Of a stretch of DNA of 64,000 bases, positions 3,534 to 29,590 are shown one piece after another. Under the pieces are notes generated by a model that did no database searches, was not told the DNA's origin, and saw only the letters and a list, made by a program, of their open reading frames with translations. Source of the DNA: Escherichia coli (GTDB lineage: Bacteria; Pseudomonadota; Gammaproteobacteria; Enterobacterales; Enterobacteriaceae). Made by a program: the position numbers and the translations under genes. Positions within the stretch are counted from its first letter, which is position 1, and each line of letters starts with the position of its first letter. Location of the stretch: assembly GCF_030384885.1 (NCBI RefSeq), contig NZ_CP128613.1. One strand, written 5' to 3'.

Positions 3534-3540
3534 TGCGAAG

Positions 3541-3567
3541 ATGCCCGGCGTCGATCCCGCCGGGCAT
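3541..3567. terminator. Hairpin between convergent cirA and transporter gene (probable bidirectional terminator)
   Basis: Inverted repeat atgcccggcg-tcgatc-cgccgggcat between two convergent stop codons. Confidence 0.5.
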
Positions 3568-3591
3568 AATTCCAGAAATTCGCTTCTGGCT

Positions 3592-4914
3592 TTATAACCG
3601 ATGAAATTTTGCCAGTAAGGCCAGTGAAAATGTTGTCAGCAAAATGGTAATGACTGCGTAAATATACACTCCTGACCATTCCCAACTGTTTTTCACCATA
3701 ATAACTGGAAGCCCTGCCATTGCCGCGCCTAAATAACTAAACAAGCCCCTGAATCCAGTAATGGAACCTGCCGCATCTTTATGCGTAACATCAAGACACC
3801 CGACAGCGAATAACATATGCGGTCCATACAATGCAAACCCCATGATTGTAAACAGAATAGCCGTTAATGTGTAGGAGACGTCCTGCACCAGCGGTACGAG
3901 AACGATGCAAATACATAAAGCGATGGCAAAGATTAATCCGGTCATCCAGCGGTTACTTTTAAACATGAAATCGGACAAGTACCCCGCCAGTAATCCCCCA
4001 GCAAGTCCACCTGCTTCAAACCAGGATATAATGGAGTTCGCTTTAATCAGGCTCCAGTTATGAACCTGAGAATAATAAATTTGTGGCCAGTCATTGAGGA
4101 TGGTGCGTGCAATATAGACCGACATATCCCCGAGGATAATGAGCCAAACTAATGGGTTGGTAAGAATATATTTAACGAATATTTGCCAAAAACTGAGATC
4201 AACCGGACTTGCTTTAACTTGTGCAAGTTCTGTCGGGTCGTTGCGCCACTTACCGACGTTAGGCAAACCGAGCGTGCCGGGACGATCTTTTATCGTAAAC
4301 AAGGCAACAATCCCCATAATCAGTGAGATTACACCCGGAACATAAAAGCCCATCTTCCAGCTGCCACTAAAAGCAATAGCAAAGCTTGTCAGGAGAGGCG
4401 CAAGACTACCGCCAATATTATGCGCAGCTTCAACAACTGCCCACCAGCGTCCGCGTTCATTTTTCGAGAACCACGAGGCCATAATTTTTGCCATTGGCGG
4501 AAAACTGGTACCCTGGAGAATAGCATTAAGGCTATACAGGATATAGAACGCAGCAACGCTGTCTGAAAAACCGAAAAGAATGTTAACAATACCGACGCCA
4601 ATAAGTACGGGGCCAGTCATCGCTCGTGGGTTAATTTTATCGACTAACATGCCACCTACAAACTTCATGGAGCCATAAAGAATGTAAAAGACCGACGACA
4701 TGATAGCGAAATCTTGTGCGGTTAATGACGTATCCGTTAACATCGCTGGCATGGCCGCAGAGAAATTCTTGCGGGTTAAGTAAAATACGGCATAAGAGAT
4801 AAATACAGAGGTGATGATTTCAATGCGAAATTTTTTATAAGTATGATCAACTTCTTCTTTTGGTTTGACCACCGGTTGGTCGGCCTGGCTGAAAATAAAT
4901 TTTTTCAAACTCAT
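3592..4914 (-). CDS. MFS transporter of the organophosphate:Pi antiporter family (UhpT/GlpT/PgtP-like)
   Basis: 440-aa 12-TM protein; segments such as WQIFVKYILTNPLVWL align to recalled UhpT (WQIFVEYVLKNKVIWL); AT-rich, part of inserted island. Confidence 0.75.
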   Translation of the reverse strand: MSLKKFIFSQADQPVVKPKEEVDHTYKKFRIEIITSVFISYAVFYLTRKNFSAAMPAMLTDTSLTAQDFAIMSSVFYILYGSMKFVGGMLVDKINPRAMTGPVLIGVGIVNILFGFSDSVAAFYILYSLNAILQGTSFPPMAKIMASWFSKNERGRWWAVVEAAHNIGGSLAPLLTSFAIAFSGSWKMGFYVPGVISLIMGIVALFTIKDRPGTLGLPNVGKWRNDPTELAQVKASPVDLSFWQIFVKYILTNPLVWLIILGDMSVYIARTILNDWPQIYYSQVHNWSLIKANSIISWFEAGGLAGGLLAGYLSDFMFKSNRWMTGLIFAIALCICIVLVPLVQDVSYTLTAILFTIMGFALYGPHMLFAVGCLDVTHKDAAGSITGFRGLFSYLGAAMAGLPVIMVKNSWEWSGVYIYAVITILLTTFSLALLAKFHRL

Positions 4915-4946
4915 TGTGAGTTTCCTTTTCTGTGAACCTTATGGCG

Positions 4947-5834
4947 CTATAATTTTTCTTCTATAAAAAAGAGAAGCGACTCGAAACCATTAAAATTAAT
5001 CTGGTCAGCAATTTTTTCCCGGGTTTTAGGTTTTGCTTTCCATGCCACGCCATTTCCGGCATGCAAAAGCATAGGAATATCATTGGCACCATCTCCACAG
5101 GCAATGATGTTTTCACGGCAGATAGCTAACTCTGTCGCTAAATTTATCAGGGTTTGCTTTTTCTTTTCTGCATTCATAATAGGTAAGGTAATTGTATCAG
5201 TTAACAGATCTTCCTTAATGCGCACAGAGTTAGAAAATGCAAAATCAAGTTGATATTTTTCCTTCAATCGCTCAGTAAAAATATCCAAACCTCCAGATAT
5301 AATTGCCGTCTTGAATCCTTTTTCTTTTAGTATGGGAAGAATAGTTTCAAGACCTGGTGAAAGAGTCATCTGTTCACAAACTTGATGCAATATATCTTTA
5401 TGCGTTCCTTTAAGCATGGCAATTCGCCGGGTAAAACTGGTATCAAAATCGATTTTCCCTTCCATCGCTTCACGGGTCAGTGCGGTGATTTTTTCAGAGA
5501 TGCCGAGTCTACGGGCTATTTCATCGACACCTTCTTCTTCAACAAAGGTGGAATCCATATCAAAGGCAATAATTCCCTGATCCGGTAAGACCCTGGGTTT
5601 ACGGAAAAAATCAAACTGATGATTATCAGCACGGTGACGTAAACCAGCATAAAAAGCAGGGTTGGTAACATCATCTGGTAATACTAGCTTTAGATACTCT
5701 TTATTTATTTGCCCACTGTAATTCGTTGTTAGCGAAAACACCGAGGGGGAAATCTTTAAATGTTGCAGATAATCTTCCAGACATTTTTGGGTGATGTCGA
5801 TGCCTGTTGGCGACAAGAAATAAATAATCGTCAT
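4947..5834 (-). CDS. HAD-family phosphatase, phosphoserine phosphatase (SerB)-like
   Basis: 295 aa; HAD motif I FDMDST, motif III K...GG, motif IV GDGANDIPML as in SerB. Confidence 0.75.
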   Translation of the reverse strand: MTIIYFLSPTGIDITQKCLEDYLQHLKISPSVFSLTTNYSGQINKEYLKLVLPDDVTNPAFYAGLRHRADNHQFDFFRKPRVLPDQGIIAFDMDSTFVEEEGVDEIARRLGISEKITALTREAMEGKIDFDTSFTRRIAMLKGTHKDILHQVCEQMTLSPGLETILPILKEKGFKTAIISGGLDIFTERLKEKYQLDFAFSNSVRIKEDLLTDTITLPIMNAEKKKQTLINLATELAICRENIIACGDGANDIPMLLHAGNGVAWKAKPKTREKIADQINFNGFESLLFFIEEKL

Positions 5835-5927
5835 TTACCGCTCCTTTTTATCTGCAATGATTATAATAAGATTTCATAGAGGCTGATGTATCTGACAATC
5901 ACAGTTGTGAATGTTAAATAAAAGATA

Positions 5928-5991
5928 AAAAAGTACTTTTTTTGATACTTTGAAATAATAAGATACTAAAAGTACCATTTTTGATATCTTT
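5928..5991. promoter_or_regulatory. Pair of ~23-bp imperfect direct repeats in divergent promoter region of the island (candidate operator)
   Basis: aaaagtactttttttgatacttt (5928-5950) and aaaagtaccatttttgatatcttt (5968-5991) in the AT-rich gap between divergent operons. Confidence 0.4.
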
Positions 5992-6044
5992 ACCAGGATA
6001 TAAAGAATAACTATTTTTCAACGTTGAAGGAATCATTTAAAAAT

Positions 6045-7397
6045 ATGGAAAGCTGCATAGATATATTCAAGATAGTTATTGGTCCATCCAGTTCCCGCAC
6101 AGTCGGGCCAATGCGTGCGGCTTATAATTTTGTGTCACAATTGAAACAGCAAGAAATGTTACCTTTGTTGCGGAAAATTGATGTCGAACTTTATGGTGCG
6201 CTGTCATTAAGCCGCAAGTGCCATAATGTTGATGTGGCGATTTATCTCGGTTTGCAAGGACACTTACCTGACAGCGTTGACATTCGCATGGAAATGTCCG
6301 CCATCAGGCGTGCAGAAACTGAGGCGACGCTGGAAGTTATGCCTGGTGTCAACGTCAGTGTATCCATTCTTTCTAATCTACAAGCGCATCCGGGGCACCC
6401 TTATGCGATGACATTTCGTGCCAGAGATGACTGGTTTACACTTTATGAAGAAACCTGGTTTTCTATCGGCGACGGTCAAGTGCTAAAAGCAGGAGAGGCG
6501 ATTATTCCTCCATCAGTCACTCCACATCCTTTTGAATTCCAGAACGCAAACGAATTATTAAAACTTTGTCAGCAAAACGGATTATCTGTCGCGGCATTAA
6601 TGATGAAAAACGAACTGCACTGCCAGACAGCAGCTTTTTTGCATGACGATCTTCATAAAAAATGGGAAGTAATGAAGGATGCGGTTTATCGCGGGATGCA
6701 TACAGAAGGATTACTTCCAGGTCCGTTTCAGGTTAACCGTCGTGCCTGTGCTTTATATAAATCGTTGCAGTCAAAGGGTTTTTCCAATGACTTCCTGACT
6801 GCGCTCAATTGGGTCAATACTTTTGCCATTGCGGTGAGCGAAGAAAATGCTGCGGGTGGACGTGTCGTGACAGCACCCACCAACGGCGCGAGCGGTATTA
6901 TCCCGGCTGTACTGTGCTGGTATGATAAATTCATTCACGAGCTTGATACATACTCCGTTACCCGCTTTTTACTGACCGCTGGTGCCATCGCCATTCTGTT
7001 CAAAAAAAATGCCTCTATTCTGGGTTCTGAAGTTGGATGTCAGGGGGAAATAGGTGTTGCCAGTTCAATGGCGGCAGCAGGATTAGCAGAACTTATGGGC
7101 GGGTCAGTGGCTCAGGTACTTAGCGCGGCAGAAATTGCGATGGAGCATCATTTAGGTTTGACCTGTGATCCAGTTGGCGGGCAGGTACAAATTCCTTGTA
7201 TTGAACGAAATGCTATTTCAGCTGTGAAAGCTATCAACGCAACGACGATGGCGTTGAGTCGCATAAGCGAGCCGTGCATTACGCTGGATGAGATAATTTC
7301 CGCGATGTATGAAACCGGAAAGGATATGAGCGCTAAATACCGTGAAACTTATCATGGCTGTCTGAGCAAATTGCAGCCAAGAAAAAAGGATGCGTAA
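6045..7397 (+). CDS. L-serine dehydratase (Fe-S, SdaA/SdaB family) homolog
   Basis: N-terminus [23 protein letters not shown] parallels SdaA [23 protein letters not shown]; ORF track start 6024 is a TTG, ATG at 6045 preferred. Confidence 0.8.
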
Positions 7398-7398
7398 G

Positions 7399-7788
7399 AT
7401 GAAATATAATACGATGAATAACAACGAAATTATTTTATCACTGTGCGCTCGCATTAAAGAAACGCGTATCTCATTATCATTGACCCAACAGCAGTTAGCC
7501 GAGCGTGCATTGGTGGGCATAGCAACGGTCAAGCGGATTGAAAAGGGGGGAAGTTTAAATCTTGATACTCTCATTTCTCTTCTGCGCGCGCTGAATAAAT
7601 TGCAAAATCTCGATGCCATATTGTTCGAAGCAGAAATGCGTAATTTCAACGAAAATAGTTCCAGCGGCGAAGGGGCAGGGCGACTACAGGTACGCCAGCA
7701 ACTGACAGATTTAAACCAGAAGTCTCCAGCCCCGCACGCAGATGACCATAATTTTAGTACGGCGCTGGAAAATACCCTCTGCTGGTGA
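7399..7788 (+). CDS. XRE-family helix-turn-helix transcriptional regulator
   Basis: HTH segment LSLTQQQLAERALVGIATVKRIEKG; start ambiguous (7390/7399/7414); overlaps end of upstream gene, stop abuts yeiG stop. Confidence 0.65.
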   Translation: MKYNTMNNNEIILSLCARIKETRISLSLTQQQLAERALVGIATVKRIEKGGSLNLDTLISLLRALNKLQNLDAILFEAEMRNFNENSSSGEGAGRLQVRQQLTDLNQKSPAPHADDHNFSTALENTLCW

Positions 7789-21908: not shown

Positions 21909-22002
21909 TTAATTCGTAAAACGTGCTACCGATCACATTAAGAATTCTCAGCATAGTTGAATTACAGGGAAGTAACATCGGGCGAGTGCCCAGTTCAGCA
22001 CA

Positions 22003-22914
22003 CTAATTCTGCTGTAAAAAGTGCAGAAACTGACTTAAAGCATAAGAAGGCGTTTCGTTATTACGCCAAAACACACCGACGCTGCCTTTCTGTTCAATCT
22101 TTGGCAGGTTGAGGATTGCCAGTTGCCCCTGGCTGGCATAACGTTGCGCCAGGCGTAATGACAAAATAGAGATCATATTGCTGCTTTGTAACAGGTTGGT
22201 ACTGACGTTCATCGATGCCGACTCAATCGTGTTTTCTGGCAGCATCACGCCGTGGTCTACCAGCGCATTATCAATGCTGATGCGGATGGGGGTACCTGTC
22301 GGCCAGACTATCCACCGCCAGTTAGCAAGATCATTCCAGCTGAGGGTGGCGTATTTCGCCAGTGGATGCTCAGGACGGGCGACAAAGCATACCGGCTCGG
22401 TGTAGAGCACGCGATAATTCAGCGGCAGCTGCAACGCGCGACCGCCAATTCGCCCAACCACCACATCGACAGAACCTGCCAACAGATCTTGCAGCAATGG
22501 GGTCATCACCTTCTCTTCGATATTCAGGTGTAGAGTTGGCATCTCCTTGAGCAAATGCAAAATCGCCTGGGATACGCAGTCAGTGGCGACGGGAGAACAG
22601 CCAATTTTCAGACTGCCGACCAGTCCACCTTGTTTAAAGCGAGCCAGTTCATATTGCGATCTTTCCATGTCATTGATTAACCGTTGGGCATGTTGCAATA
22701 ACAATTTGCCGCCTTCGGTCGGACGAAGCCCTTTGCTGTGCCGCTCAAAAAGTGTGAGTCCGATCTCATCTTCCAGTTGTGACAACCATTTCGAAAGCGC
22801 GGGTTGGGTGATATTCATCATCCGCGCGACATGGGTCAGATTACCCTGTTCACCCAGCGCCACCAGCATTTGCAGGTGATGTAGTTTTAGTTTTTGCGCC
22901 CAGTTCGCCATTTG
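22003..22914 (-). CDS. mhbR: LysR-family regulator of the gentisate cluster (MhbR-like)
   Basis: N-terminal HTH LTHVARMMNITQPALSKWL, divergent from the catabolic operon; start uncertain (22914 or 22959). Confidence 0.75.
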   Translation of the reverse strand, partial: QMANWAQKLKLHHLQMLVALGEQGNLTHVARMMNITQPALSKWLSQLEDEIGLTLFERHSKGLRPTEGGKLLLQHAQRLINDMERSQYELARFKQGGLVGSLKIGCSPVATDCVSQAILHLLKEMPTLHLNIEEKVMTPLLQDLLAGSVDVVVGRIGGRALQLPLNYRVLYTEPVCFVARPEHPLAKYATLSWNDLANWRWIVWPTGTPIRISIDNALVDHGVMLPENTIESASMNVSTNLLQSSNMISILSLRLAQRYASQGQLAILNLPKIEQKGSVGVFWRNNETPSYALSQFLHFLQQN

Positions 22915-23037
22915 CCATAACCTCCAGGTTATCTCTCTGCCCGAAATGCCATTGTACATCTCATCTCTTTAATCACATTATCGCAACATATACAAAACAA
23001 AAGAAACATCTACCTTACCTGCACTGAGGCATTTACT

Positions 23038-24396
23038 ATGACTCAACGACGTGATTTACAAGCACTTATCGATGCCGCTCCGGTCGGCAAGATGCAGTGG
23101 CGCGTTATCATCTGCTGTTTTCTGGTGGTAATGCTCGATGGTTTTGACACCGCGGCTATCGGCTTTATCGCCCCTGATATTCGCACTCACTGGCAGCTCA
23201 CCGCAGGCGATCTCGCCCCGCTTTTTGGTGCGGGTCTGCTGGGATTAACCGCAGGCGCACTGCTTTGTGGCCCGTTGTCCGATCGCTTTGGTCGCAAGCG
23301 GGTGATTGAGCTGTGCGTCTTTTTGTTTGGCGCGTTAAGCCTCGCCTCGGCTTTCTCACCGGATCTGCAAACGCTGGTCTTCCTGCGCTTTCTCACCGGC
23401 CTGGGTCTGGGCGGCGCGATGCCGAACACCATCACCATGACCTCGGAGTATCTGCCTGCCCGCCGCCGCGGCGCGCTGGTGACGCTGATGTTTTGCGGCT
23501 TTACGCTGGGTTCGGCGTTTGGCGGGATTGTCAGTGCGCAGCTGGTGCCGGTGATTGGCTGGCACGGCATTCTGGTGTTGGGGGGCGTGTTACCGCTGAT
23601 GCTGTTTGTCGCACTGCTGGTAGTTCTGCCGGAATCGCCACGCTGGCAGGTGCGCCGCCAGCTACCGCAGGCGGTGATTGCGAAAACCGTCAGCGCCATC
23701 ACCCGCGAGCGTTATGTCGATACCCACTTTTATCTCATTGAATCAGCCTCCGTTACAAAAGGCAGCATTCGTCAACTGTTTATGGGACGTCAGTTACCCA
23801 TTACGTTGATGTTGTGGGTAGTGTTCTTTATGAGCCTGCTGATTATTTACCTGCTCTCAAGCTGGATGCCGACGCTACTGAACCATCGCGGCATAGACCT
23901 GCAACACGCGTCCTGGGTCACCGCCGCGTTCCAGATTGGCGGTACGTTGGGCGCGCTGGCGCTGGGCGTGCTGATGGATAAGTTCAATCCTTTCCGCGTG
24001 CTGGCGCTGAGCTATGCCATAGGCGCTATATGCATCGTGATGATTGGCTTAAGCCAGGATGGATTATGGCTGATGGCGCTGGCGATTTTCGGCACCGGCA
24101 TTGGCATTAGCGGATCTCAGGTGGGGCTGAATGCGCTGACCGCAACACTTTATCCAACACAAAGTCGCGCCACGGGCGTGAGCTGGTCAAATGCTATCGG
24201 CCGCTGCGGCGCGATTGTCGGCTCGCTTTCTGGCGGCCTGATGATGGCGATGAATTTCTCTTTCGACACCCTGTTTTTCATTATCGCTGTGCCCGCGGCG
24301 ATCAGTGCGGTGATGTTAAGCCTGCTGATCACCGTGGTTCGCCAGTCGACCTCTGTCCCTGACTCACTGCCTCGCGCAGGCGTTGTGAACGAATAA
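23038..24396 (+). CDS. mhbT: MFS aromatic acid:H+ symporter (3-hydroxybenzoate/gentisate transporter-like)
   Basis: 452 aa, 12 TM, MFS motifs ([11 protein letters not shown]). Confidence 0.75.
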
Positions 24397-24407
24397 GGAG
24401 CATCCTA

Positions 24408-25436
24408 ATGACTGATAACAATCAAAAAAGCCGCGAGCAATTTTATCAGCATATTTCCGGGCAAAACCTGACCCCGCTGTGGGAGTCACTGCACCACCTG
24501 GTGCCGAAAACGCCCAACGCCAACTGTGCGCCAGCGTACTGGAATTATCAGGAGATCCGCCCGCTGCTGCTGGAGAGCGGCAGCCTGATTGGCGCGAAAG
24601 AAGCTGTGCGTCGTGTGCTGGTACTGGAAAACCCGGCGCTGCGCGGGCAGTCTTCCATTACCGCGACTTTATATGCCGGTTTGCAACTGATCATGCCGGG
24701 CGAAGTGGCACCGAGTCATCGTCATAATCAGTCGGCGCTGCGTTTTATTGTTGAAGGCAAAGGGGCATTTACCGCCGTTGATGGCGAACGCACGCCAATG
24801 AATGAGGGCGATTTTATCCTGACCCCACAATGGCGCTGGCACGATCACGGTAACCCTGGCGACGAACCGGTTATCTGGCTCGATGGACTGGATCTGCCAT
24901 TAGTGAACACTCTGGGCTGCGGTTTTGCCGAAGATTACCCGGAAGAGCAACAACCGGTAACGCGTAAAGAGGGCGATTATCTGCCACGTTACGCTGCCAA
25001 TATGTTGCCGCTGCGCCATCAGACCGGGAACTCCTCACCCATCTTTAACTACCGTTATGACCGTAGCCGCGAAGTGCTGCACGATTTAACCCGCCTGGGC
25101 GATGCCGATGAGTGGGATGGCTACAAAATGCGCTACGTCAACCCGGTCACCGGCGGCTATCCGATGCCGTCGATGGGCGCCTTCCTGCAACTGCTACCGA
25201 AAGGGTTCGCCTCCCGCGTGGCGCGTACCACTGACAGCACTATCTACCATGTAGTGGAAGGTAGCGGACAAGTCACCATCGGCAATGAAATCTTCACCTT
25301 TAGTGCAAAAGATATCTTTGTGGTGCCGACCTGGCACGGCGTGTCATTCCAGATTACGCAAGATACCGTTTTATTCAGTTTTTCGGACAGACCGGTACAA
25401 GAAGCCCTGGGGCTGTTCCGCGAAGCGCGTTATTAA
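24408..25436 (+). CDS. mhbD: Gentisate 1,2-dioxygenase (bicupin)
   Basis: 342 aa; cupin His motif [12 protein letters not shown]; size and order as in gentisate clusters. Confidence 0.8.
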
Positions 25437-25451
25437 TTTGGGAGAGAGAAA

Positions 25452-26153
25452 ATGACTCAATATGTATTCGAACCACAAGCGCCCGTTACCGTACCGGTTG
25501 TTGGCAGTGATGAACAATTCCCCGTGCGCCGCGTTTACTGTGTCGGGCGTAACTATGCCGCCCACGCCCGCGAAATGGGCTTTGATCCGGATCGTGAACC
25601 CCCCTTCTTCTTCTGCAAACCAGCAGATGCCGTTGTTCCGGTCGCCGCTGGCGAAACGCTGGCGCTGCCGTATCCGGCGCAGACCGATAACTATCATTAC
25701 GAAATTGAACTGGTGGTGGCGATTGGTAAAAAGGGCAGCGATATCCCACTGGAAAAGGCCCATGAATATGTCTGGGGTTATGCCACAGGCCTTGATATGA
25801 CTCGCCGTGACCGTCAAATGGAAATGCGTCAGATGGGCCGCCCGTGGGAAATCGGCAAAGCATTTGATCTCTCGGCCCCCATCGCACCGCTGCACAAAGC
25901 CAGCGAAACTGGCGGTATTGATAACGCACCTATCTGGTTACAGGTTAACGGCGAAGATCATCAGCGCAGCGATATTCGTCATCTCATCTGGTCAGTGAAT
26001 GAAACCATCAGCTACCTGTCAGGCTTCTTTGAACTGCAACCGGGCGATCTAATCTTTACCGGTACGCCAGAAGGGGTGGGCCCAGTAGTCAAAGGTGATG
26101 TGATCACGGGCAACGTCGAGGGCTTAACCCCTATCGCGGTGAAGATTGTCTGA
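25452..26153 (+). CDS. mhbH: Fumarylpyruvate hydrolase (FAH family)
   Basis: 233-aa FAH-fold protein following the dioxygenase. Confidence 0.75.
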
Positions 26154-26161
26154 GGTGCATG

Positions 26162-26806
26162 ATGAAGCTGTACAGTTTTTTTAATAGTTCAGCATCGTAC
26201 CGGGTACGCATTGCGCTGGCGCTGAAAGGCATTAATTACCAGACCGAAGGGGTGAATATCCGTATTGGTCAGCAAAATGAACTGGCCTATCGGCGGATGA
26301 ATCCTGTCGGGCTGGTGCCGACGCTGCTGACTGACGAGGGCGAGTCACTCGGTCAGTCGCTGGCGATTATTGACTGGCTGGATCGTCACTACCCGCAAGT
26401 TCCGCTGGTGCCGCAGGAAGAACCGGCCCGCAATAAGGTGCTGGAAATTGTCTATGCCATCGCTTGTGATATTCATCCATTGAATAACCTGCGCGTGCTG
26501 CGCTATCTGACCGAAGAGCTGAACGTCAGTGAAGAAGAGAAAAAACGCTGGTATGCGCACTGGATCCAGCAAGGGTTAAGCGCGGTGGAACAGCTACTGC
26601 GCCAGAGCCAGTCGGGGCAATTTTGTGTGGGTGAGACGCCGACGCTGGCAGACTGCTGCCTTGTTCCGCAGTGGGCGAACGCGCTACGTATGAACTGCGA
26701 TCTGAGTGGATATCCGCGCTGCAAAGCGGTGTACGACGCCTGCACACAACTGCCAGCGTTCATTGCCGCAGCGCCAGAAAATCAACAAGATAAAATTTCA
26801 GCCTGA
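26162..26806 (+). CDS. mhbI: Maleylpyruvate isomerase (GST zeta-class)
   Basis: 214-aa GST-like protein. Confidence 0.75.
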   Translation: MKLYSFFNSSASYRVRIALALKGINYQTEGVNIRIGQQNELAYRRMNPVGLVPTLLTDEGESLGQSLAIIDWLDRHYPQVPLVPQEEPARNKVLEIVYAIACDIHPLNNLRVLRYLTEELNVSEEEKKRWYAHWIQQGLSAVEQLLRQSQSGQFCVGETPTLADCCLVPQWANALRMNCDLSGYPRCKAVYDACTQLPAFIAAAPENQQDKISA

Positions 26807-26820
26807 CCAGGAGAACCATA

Positions 26821-28014
26821 ATGACTAAAGTGACACGCGCAGTAATTGTGGGAGGCGGGATCGGCGGTGCGGCAACTGCGCTGTCACTGGCCCGCCAGGG
26901 GATCAAAGTGGTGCTGCTGGAAAAGGCGCATGAGATCGGTGAGATCGGCGCAGGTATCCAGTTGGGGCCAAATGCGTTTTCGGCGTTGGATAGTCTTGGT
27001 GTTGGCGAAATCGCCCGCCAACGTGCGGTATTCACCGATCACATCACCATGATGGACGCGGTGAACGCCGAAGAAGTGGTGCGTATTGAAACCGGGCAGG
27101 CCTTTCGTGACCATTTCGGCGGCCCTTACGCGGTGATCCACCGCGTTGATATTCATGCCTCGGTGTGGGAAGCGGTACTGACGCATCCGAACGTGGAGTA
27201 TCACACCTCTACGAATGTCGTGGATATTCGTGAGACGGAAGACGATGTCACCGTTTTCGACGATCGAGGTAATAGCTGGAGCGGCGATATTTTGATTGGA
27301 TGTGATGGCGTGAAGTCAGTGGTGCGCCAGAGCTTATTAGGCGATGCGCCGCGCGTCACCGGTCATGTGGTCTACCGTGCGGTTATCGATTGTGCGGATA
27401 TGCCGGAAGATTTACGTATTAATGCGCCGGTATTGTGGGCGGGGCCGCACTGTCACCTGGTGCATTATCCTTTGCGCGGCGGCAAGCAGTATAACCTGGT
27501 GGTGACATTCCACAGCCGCCACCAGGAAGAGTGGGGCGTGAAGGATGGCAGTAAAGAGGAAGTGCTTTCCTATTTTGAAGGCATTCACCCGCGTCCTCGC
27601 CAGATGCTGGATAAACCGACGTCATGGCGACGCTGGTCAACGGCCGATCGTGAACCGGTAGGGAAATGGGGGACTAACCGCATTACGCTGGTGGGCGATG
27701 CGGCCCATCCGGTGGCGCAGTATATGGCACAAGGTGCCTGTATGGCGCTGGAAGATGCAGTAACGCTGGGTAAGGCGCTGGCGCAGTGTGAGGGTGATGC
27801 GGCGCAAGCTTTTGCGCTGTATGAGTCGGTACGTATTCCGCGTACCGCGCGCATCGTCTGGTCGACCCGTGAAATGGGGCGGGTTTATCACGCCGCAGGG
27901 GTAGAACGTCAGGTACGTAACCTGCTGTGGAAAGGGAAATCGCAGGCAGAGTTTTATCGCGGCATGGAGTGGCTGTACGGCTGGAAAGAAGATAACTGTC
28001 TGCAACCACGCTGA
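26821..28014 (+). CDS. mhbM: FAD-dependent aromatic monooxygenase, 3-hydroxybenzoate 6-hydroxylase / salicylate hydroxylase family
   Basis: N-terminal VIVGGGIGGAATALSL dinucleotide fold, DG and GD FAD motifs. Confidence 0.75.
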   Translation: MTKVTRAVIVGGGIGGAATALSLARQGIKVVLLEKAHEIGEIGAGIQLGPNAFSALDSLGVGEIARQRAVFTDHITMMDAVNAEEVVRIETGQAFRDHFGGPYAVIHRVDIHASVWEAVLTHPNVEYHTSTNVVDIRETEDDVTVFDDRGNSWSGDILIGCDGVKSVVRQSLLGDAPRVTGHVVYRAVIDCADMPEDLRINAPVLWAGPHCHLVHYPLRGGKQYNLVVTFHSRHQEEWGVKDGSKEEVLSYFEGIHPRPRQMLDKPTSWRRWSTADREPVGKWGTNRITLVGDAAHPVAQYMAQGACMALEDAVTLGKALAQCEGDAAQAFALYESVRIPRTARIVWSTREMGRVYHAAGVERQVRNLLWKGKSQAEFYRGMEWLYGWKEDNCLQPR

Positions 28015-29124: not shown

Positions 29125-29506
29125 TAGTGGAATCGCAGCTTACCAGAGACAATGAGTCGTTTATTCAGCTTCATCATCTTGTTGCGCTCCTTTCATGAGC
29201 TAAGCCATATATTGCCACTGGCGCAAGGCGCGCAGGGGAAGGACAATCGCCTCCTCCCCCTGCAAGCCCGGGCTCTGGCGAACAAAATCGCCGTTGCGCG
29301 GTACCTTCAGCTTATCCCCTTCGTCTACCGTGTCGTGCGCGAGTTAACGTATATGGACGCTCCCTCAGCCCACATTCATGTGGGCTGTCCCGGCCTTCGG
29401 GGAACGCTTCAGCGATTTTGACGCCACCAACACCGGAGCTGTTTGCAAATCAAGTACACAAAATATCGAGTTCCTGACCTGACAACTTATATGCCATATC
29501 TGATTT

Positions 29507-29590
29507 TTAAAATATCATCTTAAATACGCCAGTCACCACCAGTAGTCCAATCAGGAAAATAATCAATACAGCCCAGAGTATAATTTTCAT
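29507..29590 (-). CDS. yohP: Small membrane protein YohP (27 aa)
   Basis: Minus-strand ORF MKIILWAVLIIFLIGLLVVTGVFKMIF with AAGGA Shine-Dalgarno; below the ORF-track length cut-off. Confidence 0.8.
   Translation of the reverse strand: MKIILWAVLIIFLIGLLVVTGVFKMIF

Follow-up and report, generated by a model that had tools for sequence, protein, structure and literature searches.

Among regulators with a helix-turn-helix (HTH) fold, the bound protein of phages lambda and 434 can repress one promoter and activate the other from the operators OR1–OR3, and the controller (C) proteins of restriction-modification systems likewise show dual activator/repressor behaviour; at CRP co-dependent promoters, which offer an analogy, a weak CRP site may need a partner regulator. 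The antitoxin HipB binds TATCC-N8-GGATA operators co-operatively, and in Escherichia coli it carries a 16-residue unstructured tail with a conserved terminal Trp, which is a Lon degron (PMC3376134), while CRP and Lrp are reported to regulate sdaC of E. coli (PMC10882989). Here we analyse a 64,000-nt stretch of E. coli DNA (contig NZ_CP128613.1, assembly GCF_030384885.1; the whole stretch is called the window) in which two similar sequences lie within a 210-bp intergenic region (5835–6044), between a phosphatase–transporter operon on the minus strand and a dehydratase–regulator operon on the plus strand that diverge from it, just as an initial annotation of the sequence had described. The pair very probably represents operators of an uncharacterised subfamily of XRE regulators, an element of a kind that is already known. 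More specifically, we consider it probable from the sequence comparisons below that the two copies, designated O1 and O2, are operators for two dimers of the XRE protein encoded at 7399–7788, because the pair occurs wherever the XRE gene adjoins a serine operon. The initial annotation had proposed the XRE protein as the regulator that binds here, and this is backed by conservation of the sites across genera, co-occurrence of the pair with the XRE gene, its absence from the E. coli sdaCB promoter and a near-invariant recognition helix.

The repeat pair of the initial annotation is real, although the copies stand 39 bp apart from start to start rather than 40 bp, and the term 'direct repeats' holds only in part: the copies are indeed similar, but each is itself an imperfect inverted repeat. 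Copy 1 (aaaagtactttttttgatacttt) occupies 5929–5951 and copy 2 (aaaagtaccatttttgatatcttt) 5968–5991; an ungapped alignment of 5929–5947 with 5968–5986 is identical at 17 of 19 positions, and the full repeat strings of the initial annotation differ by two mismatches and one indel. Reduced to their 16-mer cores the copies read GTACTTTTTTTGATAC (5933–5948) and GTACCATTTTTGATAT (5972–5987), and the operator consensus is TAAAGTATCA-N4-TGATACTTTA, an imperfect dyad of about 22 bp with half-sites one helical turn apart. A dyad within 14–22 bp, with half-sites separated by about one turn, is apparent in the consensus of 30 sites used for training (below) and holds in the 50 sites compiled. This half-site separation suits one HTH dimer per operator, and the centre-to-centre distance of 39 bp suggests that two dimers probably bind together.

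Such a repeat is not readily produced by base composition. Among 1000 dinucleotide-preserving shuffles of 5835–6045, none contained a direct 19-mer repeat matching at 17 or more positions and 2 contained a 23-mer repeat matching at 19 or more; GTAYY-N6-GATAY occurs three times in the window, where 0.32 occurrences are expected. Tandem Repeats Finder does describe the region as a two-copy array (5916–5991, period 39, 2.0 copies, 84% matches), with similarity reaching upstream of the copies, and the repeat-bearing spacer is AT-rich (25% GC), so that the pair could be seen as a functionless product of chance or of a neutral, local 39-bp tandem duplication in AT-rich DNA. We regard that explanation as exceedingly improbable, given that the shuffles fail to reproduce the repeat and that the pair and its spacing, but not the intervening sequence, are kept across several families, which we take to be Enterobacteriaceae, Budviciaceae, Pectobacteriaceae, Erwiniaceae and Orbaceae.

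The operators also stand out as a conservation footprint. In alignments of the intergenic region from 5 taxa and from 13 taxa, with conservation expressed as the mean majority-base fraction, the values for the 13 taxa are 0.84 for O1 and 0.86 for O2, compared with 0.64 for the spacer between them and 0.63 for the stretch from O2 to the ribosome-binding site of the dehydratase gene. The other conserved blocks are ATTATAAT at 5860–5867 (0.92), an invariant ATCACA at 5898–5903 and the A/T-rich 25 nt leading up to O1 (0.86). Among E. coli carriers, whose intergenic regions diverge by up to 7%, the operators are kept and the variation falls elsewhere, O2 being unchanged in the divergent carriers except for one base in one strain. 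A symmetrised 24-nt matrix built from 30 sites of non-Escherichia loci only (consensus TAAAGTATCAATATTGATACTTTA, 20.6 bits) ranks O2 first (24.4 bits) and O1 second (17.2 bits) in the 64-kb window, the next match scoring 13.4 bits; outside the control regions, only one match of ≥15 bits was found in 388 kb (window plus loci).

Some further matches and candidate motifs deserve mention in their own right. The third-best match in the window (13.4 bits) lies 21 bp from a weaker one (9.1 bits) in an AT-rich stretch at yohP (29487–29531), and we judge both to be fortuitous because their scores fall below those of nearly all true sites. A scan of metagenomes with TAAAGTATCANNNNTGATA matched at least 120 stretches and was uninformative, since we take these to be chance matches in a huge collection; among the matches listed (80 loci), none encodes a relative of XRE, SdaB/SDH or SdaC, and there are only three weak pairs. 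One metagenome contig, Ga0075115_10080921 (L082:1075–1139), carries two GTATCA-N4-TGATAC(ATTG) palindromes 41 bp apart (22.0 and 19.8 bits); no relative of XRE, SdaB or SdaC is detectable on this 1.2-kb contig, and the pair may belong to a different system with a similar operator or may be due to chance. When the consensus sequences of FNR, CRP, IHF, Fis and Lrp were compared with the repeats by eye, none fitted both halves.

The evidence that ties the sites to the XRE protein comes from their distribution. Searches with the protein sequence gave 20 genome loci, and 4 more were reached through a distant homologue; all pair the XRE gene with a serine dehydratase gene, and together these 24 loci represent two architectures, several neighbourhoods and about a dozen genera. 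The distant homologues (39–48% identical), retrieved with an alignment of XRE sequences, occur in Mangrovibacter, Limnobaculum, Budvicia, Leminorella and Gilliamella, where the XRE gene is convergent to an sdaC-sdaB operon; compared with the E. coli proteins, SdaC of these loci is 83–87% and SdaB 68–72% identical. Here the palindrome occurs upstream of sdaC in two or four copies, paired 38–39 bp apart. With the Budvicia protein as query, this 145-aa XRE subfamily proved to be widespread in Enterobacterales and nowhere functionally named, and the four loci reached in this way (Raoultella, Pantoea, Pectobacterium and Dickeya) have the same sdaC-sdaB/XRE trio between unrelated flanks. Every scanned locus with an intact XRE homologue and an intact serine dehydratase operon has a palindrome pair upstream of the operon, spaced by 37–40 bp, and in the loci left out of matrix training the two best matches always lie upstream of sdaC, 37–39 bp apart. 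At the core sdaCB locus of E. coli, which has no XRE neighbour, there is neither a matrix match of ≥10 bits nor a palindrome pair. The pair is thus found with XRE and is absent from the XRE-less E. coli sdaCB promoter, the single negative control.

Two variants of this arrangement were seen. In Budviciaceae (L022–L026) four operators form two pairs upstream of sdaC, the pairs being 53–65 bp apart, which suggests a larger nucleoprotein complex than in E. coli. A search of plasmids with the XRE protein revealed a Klebsiella/Raoultella-like chromosomal fragment with the XRE gene on four E. coli IncFIA plasmids; in this fragment sdaB is truncated beside an aph(3')-Ia/insertion sequence (IS) insertion, and the operator sites are absent. 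The conjugative resistance plasmid pBH100alpha (L160, 6001–7072) encodes an XRE homologue 63% identical to the Budvicia protein, and the Salmonella 'plasmid' matches of the same search are the four-gene island described below, next to fghA, and add no new context.

Considering what else might occupy the palindromes, we find it improbable that they serve IHF, Lrp, Fis or an unlinked specific regulator, with XRE a mere bystander. WATCAA, which we take to be part of the IHF consensus, is present on the reverse strand of each site; however, the TTR part of that consensus is missing. E. coli sdaC is regulated by Lrp (PMC10882989), yet IHF, Lrp and Fis are found in all these hosts and the E. coli sdaCB promoter is without the motif. 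Furthermore, the two equal half-sites of the 22-bp dyad suit an HTH protein that binds as a dimer, and besides the dehydratase gene XRE is the only gene that always accompanies the motif. A role of the repeats as RNA, whether as 5' leader hairpins, an attenuator, a terminator-like element or a protein-binding RNA, appears highly improbable. Each palindrome could fold as an A/U-rich hairpin, with a minimum-free-energy fold of −10.7 kcal/mol, but 5920–6000 folds no better than its shuffles (z = −1.27; 25 of 200 shuffles as good), and no Rfam match was obtained at E-values up to 1. Over the 50 sites, the symmetric position is complementary in only 0–15% of half-site deviations, and compensatory changes (11 of 210 deviating position-pairs) are so few that sequence, not pairing, appears to be what is conserved; in addition, minus-strand transcription is predicted to start downstream of the sites.

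Binding by the XRE protein, by comparison, agrees with what the protein itself looks like. Its HTH domain belongs to Pfam HTH_3 (E = 2.4e-9), and it is encoded in the very operon that it would regulate. AlphaFold, run with a 30-sequence alignment, predicts a five-helix HTH domain (residues 8–88; predicted local distance difference test score, pLDDT, 82–96) followed by a disordered tail (residues 89–129; pLDDT <50), the C-terminal residue of which, W129, is invariant in the 30 sequences; no ligand-binding domain is present. Between the two XRE subfamilies, which are only about 40% identical overall, the recognition helix (G-I-A-T-I-K-R-x-E-x-G) hardly varies, and this fits with one shared DNA motif for the two. 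An AlphaFold model of an artificial dehydratase–linker–XRE fusion, based on a shallow alignment of 16 paired sequences, again gave pLDDT <50 for the tail and did not support its docking on the enzyme, although such a model makes a weak test.

The nearest solved structures are HipB antitoxins, the uncharacterised Vibrio regulator 4ghj, ClgR, restriction-modification controller proteins and 434 Cro. HipB, a small Cro/C1-type HTH protein, is the top structural match and the second-best sequence-profile match to XRE among solved structures, and the likeness extends to several palindromic operators with a TATC-containing half-site (bound co-operatively in the case of HipB) and to a disordered C-terminal tail with a conserved final Trp. 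In contrast to HipB, the XRE half-site is TATCA with an N4 rather than an N8 spacer, the operators lie far upstream of a predicted CRP-type promoter and not over its core, and the partner genes are metabolic. No HipA kinase domain is encoded by the island genes or the neighbouring yeiG, the score against the HipB model TIGR03070 (41.2 bits) is below the cut-off of 71.65, and E. coli HipB gives no significant BLASTP match (E = 0.97, with a HipB sequence whose tail agrees with PMC3376134). Because of the lack of HipA, the different half-site spacing, the TIGR03070 score below cut-off and the non-significant BLASTP result, XRE is not HipB in the toxin–antitoxin sense. With CI and Cro of lambda and 434 it shares the HTH fold, a dyad per dimer (14–17 bp in the phages) and several operators between divergent promoters, but the present locus has no phage context, its sites number two, 39 bp apart, instead of three at ~23–24 bp, and no C-terminal oligomerisation domain is predicted. 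The C.Esp1396I-type controller proteins are structural neighbours that use two adjacent dyad operators for two dimers; unlike them, XRE has no restriction-modification genes beside it, has a long disordered tail, and has operators 39 bp apart where those of the C proteins abut in a C-box of ~35 bp.

On the side of the phosphatase–transporter operon the operators form part of a conserved module. Read towards the operon (phosphatase–transporter in the island, sdaCB elsewhere), its order is distal operator, 37–40 bp, proximal operator, a gap, TGTGAT(C), 21–22 nt, a TAnnnT −10 box and the gene, where the CRP-like 16-mer begins at TGTGA. TGTGAT is invariant in the 13 taxa, and the same element with the same geometry occurs in all sdaCB-type loci; the gap from the O1 side to TGTGAT measures 24–25 nt in 20 of 23 loci, and the TAnnnT box follows the 16-mer by 21–22 nt in 22 of the 23 loci measured. 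In the exception, Salmonella arizonae, TGTGAT is duplicated, which halted the automated search; visual inspection shows the usual spacing from the second copy. The proximal operator and the 16-mer are 44–45 bp apart, centre to centre, in 20 loci; in Gilliamella the distance is 55 bp and in Pectobacterium and Dickeya it is 64 bp, and since the larger distances exceed the usual one by about 10 and 20 bp, helical phase is kept. The A/T-rich block between O1 and TGTGAT sets this phased distance and may be a region contacted by the C-terminal domain of the RNA polymerase alpha subunit (alpha-CTD), or UP-like.

The TATAAT at 5860–5865 is the positionally conserved best −10 hexamer on the minus strand and lies 22 nt after the CRP-like 16-mer, from which we infer a promoter of the class II CRP type with a predicted start near 5853 and the CRP-like site centred at about −42.5; O1 and O2 would then be placed near −87 and −126. 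Across the loci the −10 spacing implies a CRP-like centre at −41.5 or −42.5 relative to predicted starts. A full CRP site among the XRE loci is found only in Gilliamella, where it is perfect (TGTGATGAAGGTCACA), the remaining loci retaining just the TGTGAT half. The K-12 sdaCB promoter of E. coli drives the same kind of operon as in the distant loci and likewise has a CRP 16-mer, 21 nt and a −10 box (TATCTT), but its CRP site has two halves (TGGGATCAAGATCACT) and it lacks both an XRE neighbour and the paired palindromes. The arrangement recalls MelR–CRP at melAB and CytR–CRP at deoP2, where a specific regulator is phased upstream of or beside a CRP site, as the phase-keeping spacing would have it here; those regulators are, however, of the AraC and LacI types and not XRE, and CRP is in our case deduced from a half-site and its position.

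We suggest that at this predicted promoter, of class II type with half a CRP site, XRE bound at about −87 and −126 may act together with CRP and RNA polymerase. Provided that XRE binds, co-activation of a CRP-type promoter is in our estimate about equally likely to be right or wrong; we lean towards it because the operators are always far upstream (beyond about −75 from the conserved, putatively CRP-type promoter in 23 of 23 loci) and never over the core promoter or leader, because there is no second, downstream operator as a partner for looping, because phase is kept across the 10-bp and 20-bp insertions, and because the CRP-like site is degenerate exactly where XRE is present and complete in XRE-less E. 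coli sdaC. Repression or anti-activation, under the same proviso, is a possibility to be taken seriously, if well short of even. In its plainest form, in which XRE is a HipB-type repressor/anti-activator of both divergent promoters that occludes one from O2 and damps CRP activation of the other from upstream, we think it rather unlikely. The nearest solved relatives (HipB, 434 Cro, DdrO) are mostly repressors, O2 overlaps every plausible plus-strand −35 or −10, and HipB, too, binds several palindromic operators co-operatively (PMC3376134); nonetheless, the upstream position, the lack of a looping partner, the phase-keeping insertions and the degenerate half-site all fit co-activation better, and the sdaCB-type loci have no operator at the XRE gene.

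XRE lacks a ligand-binding domain, and its signal would probably be received through the disordered, Trp-ending tail, by proteolysis or through a partner protein. A more sweeping formulation, which we put forward as doubtful, is that XRE might be the first described member of a toxin-less HipB-like family that controls catabolism of L-serine (in the island, probably phosphoserine) across Enterobacterales, in which two dimers on phase-locked operators co-activate half-CRP-site promoters and the signal arrives via a tail of 40–60 residues ending in Trp. Regulated proteolysis might then be the tail's mode of action, or else contact, either with the serine dehydratase encoded alongside or with CRP/RNA polymerase.

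On the other side of the intergenic region, only 53 nt separate the end of O2 from the ATG of the dehydratase gene, so that O2 must lie within or directly upstream of any core promoter there, and XRE bound at O2 would autoregulate the dehydratase–XRE operon, probably negatively. Several promoter candidates cluster in one zone (Table 1), among which AAGAAT is paired with TTGATA at 5981–5986; a further one, TATTTT (6012–6017), just beyond the zone, is the best candidate in E. coli and is not conserved among E. coli carriers. All of them put the centre of O2 between about −6 and −48.

Several observations weigh against the picture of XRE as a DNA-bound co-activator and autoregulator. The consensus used to gather the training sites had come from alignments with E. 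coli among their sequences, a circularity that the independent loci and the whole-locus scans reduce and do not remove, and only one promoter, E. coli sdaCB, served as a negative control. At 10.5 bp per turn a spacing of 39 bp does not make a whole number of turns, and the lean towards co-activation is weakened by the fact that most small XRE proteins of the HipB-like kind act as repressors. The CRP assignment depends on a single conserved half-site, the second half of the 22-bp consensus site (TGTGA-N6-TCACA) matching 0 of 5 positions in E. coli, and the transcription starts are predicted, not mapped. For the plus strand, neither a consensus scan nor −10/−35 scoring in the 13 taxa gave a positionally conserved −10, and in the sdaCB-type loci there is no operator within 300 nt upstream of the XRE gene, from which it follows that autoregulation is not a family trait.

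With these reservations, an anonymous 'helix-turn-helix domain-containing protein' and an unannotated spacer become a testable circuit with a 24-bp motif, a two-site architecture and a predicted CRP-type promoter. The predicted regulon comprises the sdaCB operons of many Enterobacterales, including plant pathogens and gut commensals, and, in E. coli, Citrobacter and Salmonella arizonae and diarizonae, a rare accessory island. Since serine catabolism affects fitness in the gut and urinary tract, a local regulator of it is useful to know; the phase-locked upstream geometry together with a regulator lacking a sensor domain poses a modest mechanistic question, and the finding is otherwise of a familiar type.

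The window is chromosomal and is identical (100%) to E. coli strain 2013C-4282. In the host genome the operons flanking the sites make up an insert of four genes of low GC content (0.33–0.45) between cirA and yeiG (window 3534–7788; Table 1). The transporter best matches UhpC, PgtP and GlpT, in all cases below the equivalog cut-offs; the L-serine ammonia-lyase is 52% identical to E. coli SdaB, and its stop codon is 1 nt ahead of the XRE start. Since an antiporter-type transporter, a phosphoserine phosphatase and a serine ammonia-lyase are encoded together, the gene content suggests that phosphoserine is imported and turned into pyruvate, ammonia and phosphate. Our literature search found no paper on the island, on its protein accessions or on an XRE regulator of sdaCB.

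Table 1. Features of the repeat-bearing intergenic region and the adjoining island genes (window coordinates; operators and promoter elements are predictions)
Feature	Position	Strand	Remarks
Putative operator O1	5929–5952 (palindromic core 5933–5948)		24-mer AAAAGTACTTTTTTTGATACTTTG; weaker copy, on the side of the phosphatase–transporter promoter
Putative operator O2	5968–5991 (palindromic core 5972–5987)		24-mer AAAAGTACCATTTTTGATATCTTT; stronger copy, on the side of the dehydratase–XRE operon
O1–O2 spacer	5953–5967		Poorly conserved; length kept, not sequence (centre to centre 39 bp; elsewhere 37–40)
A/T-rich conserved 25-nt block	5904–5928		Between O1 and TGTGAT; conservation 0.86
CRP-like site TGTGATTGTCAGATAC	5888–5903	−	Only the TGTGAT half (5903 down to 5898) conserved
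Predicted −10 hexamer TATAAT	5860–5865	−	Within palindromic ATTATAAT (5860–5867); conservation 0.92
Candidate plus-strand promoter zone	5973–6008	+	TACCAT 5973–5978; TGaTATCTT 5982–5990; TATAAA 5999–6004; AAGAAT 6003–6008
Major facilitator superfamily (MFS) transporter, organophosphate:phosphate antiporter type (UhpC/PgtP/GlpT-like)	3592–4914	−	Second gene of its operon
SerB-like phosphoserine phosphatase	4947–5834	−	First gene of its operon; TIGR00338, 207.6 bits, above cut-off
L-serine ammonia-lyase	6045–7397	+	First gene of its operon; TIGR00720, 547 bits
XRE-family regulator, 129 aa (WP_001353094.1)	7399–7788	+	Pfam HTH_3; start according to RefSeq

The insert, including its intergenic region, is present in 86 of 5426 complete E. 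coli genomes, always chromosomal and in single copy, at 93–100% identity. The same four genes occupy the cirA/yeiG site in Escherichia whittamii, Salmonella enterica arizonae and diarizonae, Scandinavium and at least eight Citrobacter species, the XRE protein being 95% identical in E. whittamii and 69–76% in the other taxa. Divergence between E. coli and Citrobacter is uneven along the insert: the MFS transporter is 90–92% identical, the adjacent SerB-like phosphatase only 58–63%, the dehydratase 72–77% and XRE 69–75%, with flanking yeiG and folE at 86–97%. In Citrobacter koseri NCTC10786 (L027:2172–3492) the MFS transporter is matched by tblastn in two pieces, residues 1–272 and 274–440, a split that points to a frameshift or stop codon and thus to a possible pseudogene in that strain. 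A TonB-dependent receptor that adjoins the insert in Citrobacter (L002, L008, L013–L015, L017, L018 and L028; ~100–2850) is encoded on the opposite strand and has only ~36% identity to CirA of E. coli, from which it appears that the left flank of the insert differs between genera.

Two observations concern other parts of the sequences examined. A conserved, structured-looking stretch with a terminator-like T-run at its end lies upstream of a gene for a TerC-family membrane protein in two of the loci (L022:9740–9930 and L024:8690–8900); the element resembles the alx/yybP-ykoY manganese leader, but a search of L022 against Rfam gave no match at the gathering threshold. In the window itself, the source genome annotation places a second accessory cluster, presumably absent from E. 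coli K-12, at ~22000–28000 between yohJ and dusC; its genes encode a LysR regulator, the 3-hydroxybenzoate transporter MhbT, gentisate 1,2-dioxygenase, a fumarylacetoacetate hydrolase-family protein, maleylacetoacetate isomerase and 3-hydroxybenzoate 6-monooxygenase.

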